Shown one piece after another: positions 15,716 through 20,911 of a DNA stretch of 64,000 nt. Made by a program: the position numbers and the translations under genes. Source of the DNA: an uncultured Verrucomicrobiae bacterium (lineage in GTDB: Bacteria > Verrucomicrobiota > Verrucomicrobiia > Chthoniobacterales > Xiphinematobacteraceae); assembly GCA_963706715.1 (NCBI GenBank), contig CAVPNI010000003.1, positions 736,001-800,000 of the forward strand, in the 5' to 3' direction. Every line of letters starts with the position of its first letter. Position 1 is the first letter of the stretch. A model generated the notes under the pieces. That model saw nothing but the letters and a program-made list of their open reading frames with translations, did not search any database and was not told the DNA's origin.

Positions 15716-16081
15716 CTACGCAAGGAGACGAAGATACTTCGCAATCATGTCCGCATAATAGGGCAGGAATGTTTTGCCAGAACGCACGTCAGCAATGAGA
15801 GTTTCGATGTCCAAACGGAGTTCGCTCAGTGAATATTTCTTGGCGACCTCAAGGGCGAGCCACATTCGCCCTTCCCTCACGCCATCTCCAGGTTGTCGTT
15901 CGGATTGCGGAATCCGGACCGAAAGCCAATCATGTAGCAACTCGATGAGGGTAGAACGCTCGGTTTGAACCAAGTCAGCCATTCGTCCCGCCAAGATTGC
16001 ATTCTCTTCGTTTCCAGTTACTCGCCCAGGTAAATCTTGACCGAAGCTATCAATCAATGCAGCTAGTTCTTCCTTCTTCAT
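15716..16081 (-). CDS. candidate immunity protein, cassette C4
   Basis: 121 aa, starts 2 nt after the toxin stop. Confidence 0.65.
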   Translation of the reverse strand: MKKEELAALIDSFGQDLPGRVTGNEENAILAGRMADLVQTERSTLIELLHDWLSVRIPQSERQPGDGVREGRMWLALEVAKKYSLSELRLDIETLIADVRSGKTFLPYYADMIAKYLRLLA

Positions 16082-16083
16082 AG

Positions 16084-16937
16084 TTAATGAATTTGGCGGA
16101 GAGCAGATGGAGGAATCGTCTGCTCAAAAATAATTTCTGTCCCATAGCCCTTTGCATTCGGAGTTGGTAGAACTCTCATCGGGCCTGTGGAAGGCTTGAT
16201 TCCTAAGGAGCGTAATACGGATGTGTTGATTTCAAATACTGCGCCCGGCAGACCTCGATTGGGAGATAGCCCCAAATACATCTGAGCCTCGATCGGCATG
16301 CACCAGCGGGCGTGGTGAATACCTTGCCGGAGATTGCACCGGGCTGTAATCCGTGCTCCAGGATGTTCGCGGCATTTCCCTGTCCCGTGTAGTGGTAGAG
16401 CTTAGCTGGAAGTGCCTTTGCAACCGCCGAAGAGGGCCCACCATGCAACGCTTTAACCCCAGCCTGTCCAGCCGGACTCCCAATCAGCGGTTTGACCGCA
16501 CTTCTAACAAAATCCCCGACGGCGGGAACAAACGCCACTCCGGCCATTGCAAGGCTGGCACTGGTTCCGAAGCTCCAACCTTGGGTTCTGCCAACATTCC
16601 ACGCTGCTGTCACATCTCTTGCGTCCGCGACCTGTCCATAATATGGCACTAAACCAGCAACAAATTGCCCCGCTCCTTTTCCCCATGCTTGAGTTGTGTT
16701 AGTTGATTCATAATAGTCTCCCATCGTGGCTCCTTTAGCAAAGCTAGTAGCGATTCTTCCAGTGGGATCAGTATATTCAATTGGATTTCCGAGAGCAAAA
16801 AGCCCAATCCGCATTTCCAGCGATCGATGCAAAAATGTTGAGGAACTGCTGACAACACGAGCCAGGACGGATGTCGTGCCGGTAAGAAGCAGAAGAAGGA
16901 CGACTAGGGAAAAGAATGTGAAGCGCTTGGAACGCAT
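16084..16937 (-). pseudogene. toxin cassette C4: leader + DPTG + pre-toxin region + ART-HYD1-like tip, frameshifted near 16300
   Basis: LYHYT...ILEHGL...VFTT continues in another frame as MPIEAQ...GYGTEIIFEQTIPPSAL. Confidence 0.7.
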
Positions 16938-17000
16938 TGTTAACTGCAAAAGTAGATTTCTGTGTCCTCCCAAGTCGCTATGCGATGGGTAGCATAACTA

Positions 17001-17211
17001 GAGCTTGTCCGGAAAACACCAAATTTGCTCGAAAAAGTGATTTCACTCTGTTGGATCCCCATATTTTTATCCATCGATTCGGTCATTTTTCGGCAACGCA
17101 AAAATTATAAATGCCTGATTTTGGAGAAAATGGCGTTTTTCTGGTTTTTTCGCAAAAATTTTTGCCTCCAGATCGTCTTCATTGCTGCTTCTACGGTTTT
17201 CGGACAAGCTC
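17001..17211. mobile_element. MITE
   Basis: TIR GAGCTTGTCCG(G)AAAAC; TAACTA repeated on both flanks (16995-17000, 17212-17217). Confidence 0.75.
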
Positions 17212-17214
17212 TAA

Positions 17215-17433
17215 CTAGTGGTGACCCGAACTGGGATAGATTTTTGTGGCGCGTTCAGCAGCCATAATTTGGGTGGCACTCTGTTTACATTTCTTGATTA
17301 GCTCATCAGGATCAGTGCCGGTAGCCTCTACATTACGTCCTTGCTGATCTACTCCAGTTGCTTTGTAAATTCCCATAGAGATTTCATCCGCATCAAAGCG
17401 CCATCCGGGAAGTTCTTCAAATTTGATAGTCAT
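17215..17433 (-). CDS. candidate immunity protein, cassette C3
   Basis: 72 aa, directly downstream of a TNT tip. Confidence 0.6.
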   Translation of the reverse strand: MTIKFEELPGWRFDADEISMGIYKATGVDQQGRNVEATGTDPDELIKKCKQSATQIMAAERATKIYPSSGHH

Positions 17434-18362: not shown

Positions 18363-18761
18363 TCACGGCTGCAATTCCCACCACTTAGCGGTCTTCATTT
18401 TCTCGAATACTTGCCTATCGTGTTCTAAAAGCGGTTTCCCATATCGTTGCAAAGCATTTGACAAACGGTTCAGTTCGCATTGAATTTCTTTATTGGAGTT
18501 GGCAATTCCATATCCCAAAGCCTTCTCGATAGATGGATAGAAGACTTTCAAAAACAACCGAAATTGGAAACGGTATGAAGGGGGATTTTCATCAAAAAAG
18601 ATGTCAACTTCACCACGTCCGCTATAAGTTACTTCCATATTCACGGCCATTGAGGTATATCGAACTCTACTTTGGTCCGCGCTCGTTTTGGTGAATCCAC
18701 AACGCTCGACTAAGAACTGAAACTCATTCTGAGCGTGATTCTGAAAATCCGGTTCGTTCAT
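18363..18761 (-). CDS. candidate immunity protein, cassette C2
   Basis: 132 aa with GAGG/AAAG RBS, directly after the toxin. Confidence 0.65.
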   Translation of the reverse strand: MNEPDFQNHAQNEFQFLVERCGFTKTSADQSRVRYTSMAVNMEVTYSGRGEVDIFFDENPPSYRFQFRLFLKVFYPSIEKALGYGIANSNKEIQCELNRLSNALQRYGKPLLEHDRQVFEKMKTAKWWELQP

Positions 18762-18776
18762 TGTTCGCTTTCCTCG

Positions 18777-19685
18777 TTATTGGCCAGATGGCCTTCTCCA
18801 AAAAACGTCGTTACCCTGTTGGATTCGTTGCCAACTCTGTGAACTCATAAAATCTCGCTCATGTTGCAACCAACCGCCGAGCACATTCGGATTCGCTTCC
18901 CGAATAGGGATTCCGATGTTCATCGCCTTTTGAAGTGCTTGCTGGTTTTGCGCCCAATCCAAAGCCTCCTTTCGTAGCCAAGGCAGATTCAACGTATATT
19001 CTCCAGGTCGGAGCATCGAGAGGTTGAATTCGCTCGCCTTATAAAGAACAAACTTTGGATTCCCTAAGTTCTTTATGAATCCGAATTCCAACTGTACAGT
19101 TTCCTTTGCAAAAGCTTTCGGAACACTGTTAGCAACATTGGTAATCGCTGAAGCCTGCTTCCCAAACAATGGTTTAACAGCCGCCTGAGCAGATAGACTT
19201 TTAGAAGCAATCTTGGTAGGCGCAGAACCCGGTGCAACTATAACCGATCCTGCGGCTACTGCTGTAGCCACTAGTGAATTCGGATCATAGTAGCCATGGC
19301 GTGCATAGGGGGAAAGCCTTTCATTGATCCAAGCTGCGTCCCTGTACAAGTGGTGAGGCTGCCCTATTAAGTCAAATCCAGCGCCTGCGATACTAAAGAG
19401 TGCTGAAATCCCTCCTGGCACGGCATCTAAAACCGTATCCGCAATTGAATGGCTCAAGTTACTGGCCTGTGTCCCTGCGTTTTGAAGAACTGGAGTTGCA
19501 ATTCTCCCGGTAGGATCGGTCCAGTTGACCGGATTTCCGTTGCAAAAAAGCCCAATCCGAGTTTCCAGCGATCGATGCAAAAACGCTGAGGAGCTACTGA
19601 CAACACGAGCCAGGACGGATGTCGTGCCGATAAGAAGCAGAAGAAGAACAGCTAGGGGAAAAAGTGCGAAGCGATTCGGACGCAT
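18777..19685 (-). CDS. toxin cassette C2; tip possibly a Tne2-like NADase
   Basis: GNPVNWTDPTG; tip WAQNQQAL..AM..GIPIRE...WL..ER..M...W. Confidence 0.7.
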   Translation of the reverse strand: MRPNRFALFPLAVLLLLLIGTTSVLARVVSSSSAFLHRSLETRIGLFCNGNPVNWTDPTGRIATPVLQNAGTQASNLSHSIADTVLDAVPGGISALFSIAGAGFDLIGQPHHLYRDAAWINERLSPYARHGYYDPNSLVATAVAAGSVIVAPGSAPTKIASKSLSAQAAVKPLFGKQASAITNVANSVPKAFAKETVQLEFGFIKNLGNPKFVLYKASEFNLSMLRPGEYTLNLPWLRKEALDWAQNQQALQKAMNIGIPIREANPNVLGGWLQHERDFMSSQSWQRIQQGNDVFWRRPSGQ

Positions 19686-19691
19686 TCCTCT

Positions 19692-19937
19692 TTAATTCCG
19701 TTTCTTTGCAAGAGGGTCTCTACTCAGGCTATCGAAAATATACTGGCAAGCTTCCTCCTCAGTGATAAACCAACGTTCTCCAAGCCGTTGGCCGCGCTCG
19801 CTAGCATACACACACCAACCACCAGACTGTGGACGCTCTAACACAAGACTTTGATCCCGGACCTCTCCATCAAGTGAGGCATAGCGTGTATCAACACCTT
19901 CCTTCTCTAATTTTTCTTTCAGTTGCGGAACATTCAT
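19692..19937 (-). CDS. candidate TNT immunity protein, cassette C1
   Basis: ATGA overlap with the toxin; W.VY.SERG...F..EEEAC.Y pattern like TNT-associated antitoxins. Confidence 0.75.
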   Translation of the reverse strand: MNVPQLKEKLEKEGVDTRYASLDGEVRDQSLVLERPQSGGWCVYASERGQRLGERWFITEEEACQYIFDSLSRDPLAKKRN

Positions 19938-20911
19938 TTCGACTTCAATACTCCTATATCAATTAATTGTTGAACGCTTAACGGAAGTTGATGCTGAATT
20001 CCTAGACCCGGAGACCCAAAGCCAGGAGCAGATAACCCGGTTTTCACTTGAAATGGTTGAAGCACCTCGTAAGCCTCGTAGGCTACCCCACTTTCATAGC
20101 TGGCAGGTAGTCCTCTGCTTGAAAAGGGCGTTCCCTTTGGAGCAACATAATAACCAGTAGCTCGTGGACCAAATCTATCAATCAAGGTACCAGCCGTCAG
20201 TTCAGTTTCAGTAACACTGCCAAGAAAACCTGCATTACCAGGCCAACTAGTCGGAGTCGCTTGTCCTGAATACGGAACTAAAGCTTTTGTTTGGACGCTA
20301 GCAGCCGAACCCGGCTTCCCAAACAGCGGTTTGACGCCCGATGTAGCAATAGCTCCCTTAGAAGCAATCTTTGTAGGTGCAGAACCCGGTGCAATAATAA
20401 CCGACCCTGCCGCTACGGTAGTAGCCACCAGCGAATTCGGATCATAGAGACCTGCACGAGCATTCGGGGAAAGCCTTTCATTGAGCCAAGCTGCCTGAGC
20501 GTGCAGATGACCTGCCTGCATACCCATTAAATTCATCCCGTATCCCATTGCACTAGAGAGAAGCGAAATCCCTCCCGGCACGGCATCCAGAACCGTATCT
20601 GCAATTGAGTGACTTAGGTTACTGGCTTGTGCTCCGGCATTTTGAAGAAACGGAGTTGCAATTCTTCCAGTGGGATCGGTGTAGACAACGGGGTATGTCT
20701 GTTCTGATGCGATTTGCCAGGATATTTGGATTTTATCCTGTTGATTTACAGAGAGAACGATGATTTTTGGCAGGCTCGTTTGGAGACTGTTGTAAAAAAT
20801 TTTCCAGACGCTGTTTTTTGATGCATCAGGCAGACACGTCCAGACAGCAGCTATGATCCATAGAGCAAGAAGCCATGAAGGCAGGAGTATTCTTTTAGCT
20901 GCGGGGAACAT
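19934..20911 (-). CDS. toxin cassette C1 with TNT (DUF4237) NADase-like tip
   Basis: PVVYTDPTG; WPGNAGF, IDRFG, GTPFSSRGLP, YEVLQP and PGLGIQ motifs. Confidence 0.85.
   Translation of the reverse strand: MFPAAKRILLPSWLLALWIIAAVWTCLPDASKNSVWKIFYNSLQTSLPKIIVLSVNQQDKIQISWQIASEQTYPVVYTDPTGRIATPFLQNAGAQASNLSHSIADTVLDAVPGGISLLSSAMGYGMNLMGMQAGHLHAQAAWLNERLSPNARAGLYDPNSLVATTVAAGSVIIAPGSAPTKIASKGAIATSGVKPLFGKPGSAASVQTKALVPYSGQATPTSWPGNAGFLGSVTETELTAGTLIDRFGPRATGYYVAPKGTPFSSRGLPASYESGVAYEAYEVLQPFQVKTGLSAPGFGSPGLGIQHQLPLSVQQLIDIGVLKSK
20304..20692. repeat. 389-bp direct repeat, copy 1
   Basis: Identical by eye to 28649-29037. Confidence 0.92.

Follow-up and report, generated by a model that had tools for sequence, protein, structure and literature searches.

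How do four displaced toxin tips, lined up behind a recombinase gene, come to have a start codon and a hydrophobic leader each, and what would such leaders be kept for? The question is raised by a stretch of 64,000 nucleotides (nt) from an uncultured Verrucomicrobiae bacterium (assembly GCA_963706715.1, contig CAVPNI010000003.1, positions 736,001–800,000; hereafter the window, position 1 being its first letter), in which a full-length Rhs toxin gene is followed on the minus strand by an integrase–primase element, termed element A, and by four orphan cassettes, C1 to C4. Each cassette is composed of a leader, a pre-toxin region and a toxin tip and is followed by a presumed immunity gene, I1 to I4 (Table 1; contigs of the assembly are always named as such, e.g., contig C1). 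It is proposed here, with modest confidence, that displaced Rhs tip/immunity modules have piled up in this array, that the leaders are scars of the displacing DNA and that the old tips are kept translated for the sake of immunity.

The outline of the array had been drawn in a first-pass annotation made from the sequence alone, and much of it stands. The open reading frames (ORFs) confirm four minus-strand cassettes with their own in-frame start and hydrophobic N-terminus; the leader common to C2, C3 and C4 (leader B) reappears as a three-copy direct-repeat family (16746–16938, 18115–18307 and 19494–19686), and C1 does have a different hydrophobic leader (leader A). The in-frame fusion at the Rhs core end is likewise found, with the junction where the full Rhs reads ..SYALGN and then PVVYTDPTG, and the tight packing of genes behind the recombinase is seen in 4-nt overlaps and short gaps. 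The uniform picture of C2 to C4 survives in part: the leader block is common to all three, but C4 is split in two frames, and C3 has a 1-nt indel and its own ATG. What does not survive is the idea that leaders are an intrinsic property of the cassettes, since leader A is the integrase-proximal end of an integrative element that lies four times beside different tips; for leader B a comparable origin would follow by analogy.

The cassettes have features of an Rhs orphan array: they are preceded by a full-length Rhs gene of like orientation, the xxxxDPTGRIA stretch is present in all four, and different toxins follow beyond it. The Rhs core retained on the orphan tips amounts to only 4–10 codons. 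A small ORF, the presumed immunity gene, overlaps or abuts the stop of every tip (4-nt overlap in Rhs/I0 and C1/I1; gaps of 15, 6 and 2 nt in the others). In domain searches the immunity ORFs, as well as the tips other than those of C1 and C3, gave no family match. The toxin part of C4 is divided between two overlapping frames (16203–16973 and 16084–16299) and looks frameshifted; its pre-toxin region is 62% identical to the tip behind another element copy, in an alignment that covers the pre-toxin part only.

Leader A and the element that it terminates

Leader A was found to be the integrase-side arm of element A, extending up to the tip junction, which lies 263 nt past the integrase stop, next to a tyrosine recombinase gene. 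The integrase matches Phage_integrase (E 1.9e-38) and the NCBIfam model of the XerC subfamily (NF002331, 421 bits vs. a cut-off of 371 bits). Integrase, primase and leader A occur together in four genome copies, the first two with 100% protein identity and leader A with 94–100%, and the nucleotide identity of the backbones is 98.3–99.96% over 3.3–5.7 kb; two of the copies share 6428 nt at 99.84%. The last bases are the same in all four, and beyond them four different tips begin, always just before the xxxxDPTG codons. An origin of leader A in this integrative element is well supported, and element A is probably mobilisable. The copy on contig C1 encodes a TrwC relaxase with helicase domains (E 1.3e-75), i.e., a transfer function; the copy in the window, which is cut by insertion sequences, is without a relaxase.

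The two ends of the element share an identity segment in direct repeat. In the window the segment is 389 nt long and 100% identical, so that C1 and the full Rhs are the same throughout it and their toxins diverge only beyond, and in another genome, G100, it is about 89 nt long with one mismatch. Three of the four contig ends involved fall inside the repeated copies of the element. The breaks of the assembly (both the start and the end of contig C1, the end of contig C3 and the start of contig C4) lie inside Rhs tips or element copies, and therefore the true copy number and order may exceed those assembled. Folded as single-stranded DNA, leader A does mildly better than its shuffles (z = -2.0 and -2.6).

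Does such an element bring a tip of its own? In a metagenome contig (loci L022 and L023) an Rhs core is followed by a unit of tip, immunity gene, regulators, primase, three recombinases and signal-peptide-like leader, and then by an identical unit, in a perfect tandem with a unit length of 8412 nt. Genome G100, whose integrase is 44% identical to that of element A, has the same layout: a 7326-nt tandem at 99.8% identity (unit 7237 nt) is followed by a different old tip, with which only about 89 nt of the core end are common. From these tandems, the only such forms seen for the element unit, it is evident that a tip and an immunity gene belong to the unit itself. The leader at the integrase end is accordingly placed, in sequence terms, such that it would read into the element's own tip in a tandem or circle, and into the displaced tip at the far end. 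The metagenome contig is also peculiar in that three consecutive tyrosine recombinase genes stand in place of one within the same tip-swapping layout.

Homologues of the integrase with 41–54% identity keep the order of primase, integrase and leader ORF, the last starting 34–92 nt past the integrase stop. The full order in these relatives, from PVC-group bacteria and Acidobacteriaceae, is primase, integrase, start codon, leader, Rhs core remnant, tip and immunity gene. Their hosts are other genomes of the phylum as well as metagenome-assembled genomes (MAGs) of Kiritimatiellia, Akkermansiaceae, Opitutales, other Verrucomicrobiota and one member of Acidobacteriaceae. In 17 loci a 15-nt motif, M1, was found about 100–200 nt past the integrase stop, and in 8 of the 17 a second copy, M2, lies 101–102 nt downstream of it. 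Apart from the window, the loci recorded for this motif are L049, L051, L052, L053, L082, L088, L098, L115, L116, L128, L131, L134, L152 and L156. A spacing of 101 nt places M1 and M2 in different phases of one ORF, and in L049 the phase of M1 differs from that of the leader ORF, which argues that the motifs are conserved at the DNA level. Leader-specific sequence stops 125 nt (G100) or 126 nt (element A) after the first base of M1. The motif pair flanking this fixed junction looks like a recombinase site pair, in which M2 may be the recombinase site beside the crossover and M1 an accessory copy. In L082, from a Kiritimatiellaeota MAG, the integrase frame runs stop-free through the leader into the tip, giving an open frame of 638 amino acids (aa), which may be a real fusion or a sequencing error.

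The leader frame, its start and the immunity genes

A profile search with the leader family retrieved 877 cluster representatives at E<=1e-3 and 395 at E<=1e-10. Among the best 150 family members the leader stands at the N-terminus in 136, in proteins of 88–397 aa. Over the 90 codons that lead from just before M1 through the junction into the tip, a stop-free frame was present in 16 of the 17 loci; the open phase was phase 0 in 13 loci and phase 1 in three, and phase 2, with 57 stops, was never open. The immunity gene overlaps the tip stop by 4 nt in Rhs/I0, in C1/I1, in two other element copies, in G100, in L023 and in L052. The open frame and the overlapping or abutting tip stops fit the first-pass idea that the leader maintains translation of the immunity genes. 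As judged from these frames, selection would act on the frame being open, whichever peptide it encodes, and the leader's job would be to keep ribosomes running through the displaced tip into the immunity gene.

Could the leaders instead be junction junk, with open frames and hydrophobic starts as by-products of T/C-rich sequence and with silent orphans? This is regarded as rather improbable. In leader B the hydrophobic core is encoded by a CT-rich tract, which would give Leu, Phe or Ser in any frame, and C4 is already broken. A scan for promoters and terminators showed no enrichment over shuffles, with 9 promoter-like sites found vs. 13.5 expected, the region between the motifs has no codon-position bias, and signal-peptide-like starts are rare in the leader family, all of which an accidental origin would accommodate. 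Such an origin, however, accounts poorly for a frame kept free of stops at 16 of 17 loci, with one phase closed throughout, for the conserved position of the start just past the integrase and for the 136 of the best 150 proteins that begin with the leader. It is also at odds with C3, which kept a start codon despite its indel, with the diverged leader-B-type copies (48–52% identity), which keep start, basic residues, hydrophobic core and an A-x-V-V site in 5 of 5, and with several unrelated orphan leaders that are signal-peptide-like against a background of 11.8%.

Element A sits at the Rhs core end in this genome, and at the opposite end its relatives bring a tip and an immunity gene of their own. 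In the displacement model favoured here, recombination inside the stretch common with the Rhs core end would fuse the element's tip to the resident Rhs, and the old tip with its immunity gene would be pushed behind the integrase. There the terminal frame of the element, starting 34–92 nt past the integrase stop, would cross M1 and M2 and enter the old tip in frame. The displaced toxin frame would still be translated from the element side, the overlapping or abutting immunity gene would still be made, and for that reason the cell would stay protected from siblings that still fire the old toxin. The hydrophobic starts of both leader types may be a local addition, by which the tip, without its cage, would be routed to the Sec translocon or membrane and not be left in the cytoplasm.

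The N-termini were scored by a crude rule of our own and not by SignalP: the rule considers the hydropathy of an 11-residue window, the charges and a -3/-1 (AXA) site, and its background is 219 of 1856 long ORFs (11.8%). By this rule leader-B-type copies are signal-peptide-like in 5 of 5 cases in the genome, the diverged relatives on contig C4 included, and so is the start of the resident Rhs. Leader A is signal-anchor-like, that is hydrophobic and with two basic residues, and has no AXA site. Signal-peptide-like starts are also seen on unrelated short tip proteins (P0005, P0007, P0008, P0010, P0020, L020, L023, L025, L049 and L052), and the usual start of the leader family is a short non-hydrophobic peptide. 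The signal-peptide-like leaders of the first-pass annotation hold for leader B by the crude rule, but leader A is without a cleavage site and such starts are rare in the leader family. The signal-peptide reading is less secure than that of the open frame, and would describe a local peculiarity. A tie between signal-peptide-like leaders and hosts without a type VI secretion system was considered and rejected, VipB being absent from this genome and from 8 of 9 other hosts.

The first option of the earlier annotation was that the cassettes are free-standing mini-toxins, exported by Sec and secreted without the Rhs cage, which is thought very unlikely. The signal-peptide-like starts that leader B has in common with many short tip proteins unrelated to it would suit it, the retained pre-toxin region could conceivably serve target entry, and Sec-dependent polymorphic toxins with only a signal peptide are a recognised class in the available text of Zhang et al. 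(2012; PMC3482391). However, leader A has no evident cleavage site, and a non-hydrophobic start is the norm of the leader family. In Rhs and Tc toxins, processing at DPxG depends on the cage, and it would be impossible on tips with so few core codons. Finally, the TNT domains of C1 and C3 are of a kind that acts on cytoplasmic NAD+, and no delivery device for a soluble tip is evident.

Leader B and the weight of the evidence

Leader B is shared over 111–140 nt. Its central part (nt 31–141 of the C2 leader, 111 nt) is 90–97% identical between the copies, and the flanks reach 61–75% identity just downstream and 40–77% upstream; the block therefore has sharp edges and a history separate from that of the tips. 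The C3 indel lies near the 5′ edge of the shared block, and the ATG of C3 (18312) differs from the one common to C2 and C4. In the 3.04-Mb genome the DNA of leader B occurs at only these three places. The genome contains five leader-B-type copies with 48–80% identity, and start codon, basic residues, hydrophobic core and a junction after ..GLF are kept in 5 of 5. The junction of this type lies at two different core-end positions, a few codons before DPTG, and at two loci the block precedes a C3-like tip. No backbone was found near the leader B cassettes. A search of 40 relatives did not find leader B, the sole match being to the toxin part, and P0008, a weak relative, is the only one outside this genome. 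When leader B is aligned locally, with gaps, to the end of the Rhs core, the scores are 26–31, which is suggestive but weak. The motif-like end of leader B is not claimed as the M1/M2 site, since the profiles are unlike. By analogy with leader A, leader B may be the same kind of scar from a second, unrelated leader type, left by older events whose backbone is gone or was never present, and possibly by small cassettes moved in trans.

One may ask if the leader block is rather the recombination site of an integron-like cassette array, in which the adjacent Xer-type integrase would insert, excise and reshuffle tip/immunity/leader cassettes at the Rhs core end, so that the Rhs could be re-armed with stored tips. 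This explanation, which overlaps the one preferred here and takes the leader as a site first and a start codon second, is judged unlikely. It would account for the position of a tyrosine recombinase 5′ of co-directional cassettes between which a block is repeated, for the far better conservation of leader B than of its flanks, with sharp edges, and for compact cassettes (only 6 nt separate I1 from leader B), three of which have leader B and no backbone between them. Two conserved DNA motifs and a fixed junction position in the element family would suit it as well, and rAID-1 arrays of Bacteroidales offer, in the accessible part of their description, a precedent with a XerD-like recombinase and integron-like intergenic repeats (Ross et al., 10.1101/471110). 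Yet leader B forms no single-strand hairpin above shuffles (z = 0.95, -0.79, -0.10 and 0.13), as an attC site would, and the integrase scores 109 and 72 bits with integron-integrase models whose cut-offs are 265 and 435 bits. Moreover, leader B has no M1 at the family spacing and is unlike the leader family by profile, and the I3-like gene on contig C4 is not followed by the leader B block, the block preceding a C3-like tip at both loci.

Returning to the stack of displaced modules, a number of observations weigh against it. Insertion sequences interrupt the far end of the element copy in the window, whose own attL is therefore not readable apart from the identity segment, and the perfect 389-nt repeat fits a homologous crossover or later gene conversion equally well. 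Four near-identical backbones beside different tips are not explained by a simple fixed-cargo model. A signal-peptide-like start was scored in 1 of the best 150 leader-family members and in 2 of 14 integrase- or motif-linked leaders, for which reason the hydrophobic start is read, from these sequences, as a local feature and not one general to the family. VipB was present only in G100, whose leader is signal-peptide-like, so that this marker does not sort leader kinds. Between M1 and M2 the codon-position test gave no third-position excess (195/184/205 differences, from 17 non-independent pairs), and the leader peptide itself seems unconstrained in these comparisons; differences between the copies of leaders A and B were too few for synonymous and non-synonymous counts to decide. 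No Shine-Dalgarno sequence is evident at the usual distance from the leader ATGs, as read from the sequence and not measured against the usage of this genome. As for leader B, it was not found in 400 other sampled genomes of the phylum, which gave two chance-level matches in long Rhs frames; in a collection of 5.8 billion proteins its residues 1–56 matched only this genome's three copies, and its profile has no similarity to those of the element leader family (hhalign probability 0.06).

A wider reading, which is put forward tentatively, would see in the relatives of element A a large undescribed family of Xer-type integrase/primase elements dedicated to site-specific swapping of Rhs tips, with a frame that evolved for immunity persistence; the same integrase may also reshuffle stored tips in an integron-like manner. 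In terms of the leader, such a family would comprise at least 877 clusters, from PVC-group bacteria and beyond. A single DNA sequencing run (share 0.06) gave only contigs of distant relatives, e.g., with an integrase about 85% alike.

Known systems and the surrounding window

The displacement of Rhs C-termini and the resulting orphan arrays were reportedly described by Jackson and colleagues in 2009 and by Koskiniemi and colleagues in 2014. The locus resembles such displacement arrays in that a full-length Rhs gene with its presumed immunity gene is followed by several truncated tips, which have the core end in common and a presumed immunity gene each. It differs from them in that the core remnant amounts to a handful of codons and a foreign leader stands before the tip, leader A coming from a defined integrase/primase element with a fixed junction. 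Integrative elements that enter the 3′ end of a gene and supply a replacement 3′ end are also known, e.g., islands in tRNA genes and phage 21 or e14 in icd. Similarly to these, the integrase lies beside the attachment site, a stretch identical to the target's 3′ end recurs at both ends of the insertion (389 nt in the window, 89 nt in G100), insertion leaves the target gene whole, and tandem copies occur. In contrast to them, the replacement 3′ end here is a different one, with a new toxin and immunity gene, so that the function of the gene changes, and the displaced 3′ end is not left dead but gets a new start codon.

Recombinases beside arrays of conflict genes have been noticed before. In the portion of Steele et al. 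(2017; PMC5727410) at hand, some orphans are noted as transcribed and as having retained a start site, homologous recombination is given as the cause of displacement, and integrase-like genes in the neighbourhood of Rhs loci are mentioned as untested. The text available for rAID-1 defines it by a 5′ XerD-like recombinase, with at least 44% identity to a B. fragilis query, and co-directional genes (Ross et al., 10.1101/471110), and XerC/D genes beside poly-immunity loci are mentioned in the accessible sections of Zhang et al. (2012; PMC3482391). As far as these sources describe them, both have in common with the present locus a Xer-like recombinase 5′ of a co-directional array of conflict genes and repeated intergenic sequences. 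Compared with the available account of rAID-1, the cassettes here hold whole toxin tips in addition to presumed immunity genes, the array is attached to a full-length Rhs, the host, judging by named relatives, lies outside Bacteroidales, and the recombinase travels with a primase-helicase (in one copy also with a relaxase) in a multi-copy element. With Sec-dependent polymorphic toxins, as outlined in the same portion of PMC3482391, the leader-tip genes share a signal-peptide-like N-terminus, a polymorphic tip and a downstream immunity gene; unlike these, they have no presentation or delivery domain, and the N-terminus of leader A comes from the end of a mobile element. Searches of the full-text literature found neither tip-swapping elements that have a leader frame nor orphan tips with leaders described, a point on which journals under subscription and a Current Biology paper of 2026, dealing with poly-immunity arrays of Rhs, may bear.

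Tip gain and the pile-up of orphans in Rhs and other polymorphic toxins are mostly put down to homologous recombination, with the nearby integrases left unexplained. The vehicle suggested by the present data is a defined one: an integrase/primase element that brings a tip and an immunity gene of its own and has a fixed junction beside a conserved motif pair and a terminal open frame that leads into any tip behind it. If true, this would explain why some orphans have start codons, how a newly re-armed cell stays immune to its unconverted siblings and why orphan arrays sit behind a recombinase. The tip-swapping family, if real, would further provide a mechanism of C-terminal displacement that is not reliant on homologous recombination.

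Table 1. Coordinates of the features in the window, in minus-strand order.
Feature	Position	Strand	Remark
Rhs toxin, full-length, 3046 aa	28267–37407	-	ORF and domain matches
Identity segment, Rhs-side copy	28649–29037	-	core end from PVVYTDPTG and pre-toxin region; 100% identical to 20304–20692
I0, presumed immunity gene of the current Rhs tip	28025–28270	-	4-nt overlap with Rhs stop; no family match
Tn5/IS4-type insertion sequence and 336-nt DDE_3 (IS630-like) fragment	26118–27897	+	transposase 26199–27554
Element A backbone	20693–26118	-	at least four genome copies, 98.3–99.96% nt identity
Element A small ORFs	25852–26109, 25650–25850	-	
Element A XRE regulator	25199–25660	+	divergent
Element A primase-helicase, 1024 aa	22047–25121	-	
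Element A XerC-type tyrosine integrase, 362 aa	20956–22044	-	
Leader A	20693–20911	-	219 nt; ATG 44 nt past integrase stop, 73 codons ending ..EQTY
Motif M1 in element A, 15 nt	20804–20818	-	read K-N-S-V-W
Motif M2 in element A, degenerate (9/15 positions)	20703–20717	-	exactly 101 nt after M1; junction 10 nt beyond
C1: leader A, pre-toxin region, TNT-domain tip	19934–20911	-	PF14021, E 7.5e-25
Identity segment, displaced-tip copy	20304–20692	-	100% identical to Rhs-side copy
I1, presumed immunity gene	19692–19937	-	4-nt overlap with C1 stop
C2: leader B, pre-toxin region, tip of no named family	18777–19685	-	same tip on many metagenome orphans
Leader B copy 1	19545–19685	-	ATG 6 nt past I1 stop
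I2, presumed immunity gene	18363–18761	-	small ORF after C2
C3: leader B, pre-toxin region, TNT-domain tip	17440–18312	-	PF14021, E 2e-20
Leader B copy 2	18166–18312	-	shared block to ~18291; 1-nt indel, own ATG 18312
I3, presumed immunity gene	17215–17433	-	89%-identical copy behind C3-like tip on contig C4
Dispersed short repeat	16995–17217		between I3 and leader B copy 3
C4: leader B and second-type pre-toxin region; toxin part in two frames	16084–16937	-	frames 16203–16937, 16084–16299
Leader B copy 3	16797–16937	-	
I4, presumed immunity gene	15716–16081	-	small ORF after C4

The resident Rhs is composed of a signal-peptide-like N-terminus, a region of about 1100 aa, a Pro-rich linker, DUF6531, RHS repeats, the core end ..SYALGNPVVYTDPTGRIA.. 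and the tip; its family matches are RHS_repeat (E 5.9e-40), DUF6531 and Rhs_assc_core. The first ~1100 residues (33808–37338, from the signal-peptide-like start to the linker) gave no Pfam match at E<=0.001. A Sec-type class of Rhs proteins with signal peptide, long N-terminal region and RHS repeats appears in the available part of Zhang et al. (2012; PMC3482391), and since the start is signal-peptide-like and VipB/TssC was not found in this genome (3.04 Mb, scored 100% complete), the resident Rhs is read as being of that Sec-dependent kind, as far as the class is described there. On the minus strand the Rhs tip is followed by I0, the DDE_3 and Tn5/IS4 sequences, which interrupt the far end of element A, two small ORFs, the XRE regulator, the primase-helicase, the recombinase and the pairs C1/I1 to C4/I4. 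A search of positions 15500–29300 against Rfam gave zero matches at E<=1.

Between DPTG and the variable toxin lies a conserved pre-toxin region of about 130 aa, Gly/Ala-rich, partly hydrophobic and without a family match, which is common to the Rhs, C1, C2 and C3 (the identity segments and matching parts) and to metagenome tips; a second pre-toxin type is found in C4 and one other tip. The genome holds a second orphan array (contig C4, 9.6–21.8 kb, locus L211), in which tips without a leader stand together with two tips of diverged leader-B type, a truncated Rhs and an I3-like gene that has 89% identity with I3. The window is rich in insertion sequences at 9453–15443 and 26118–27897 (IS110-type, IS3-type with two ORFs, a DDE_5 transposase, Tn5/IS4-type and DDE_3 fragments), of which many near-identical copies occur genome-wide, and one pair of them truncates the far end of element A. 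The short repeat between I3 and leader B copy 3, of about 215–223 nt, is present in dozens of copies on all four contigs with 84–100% identity, and resembles a miniature transposable element.

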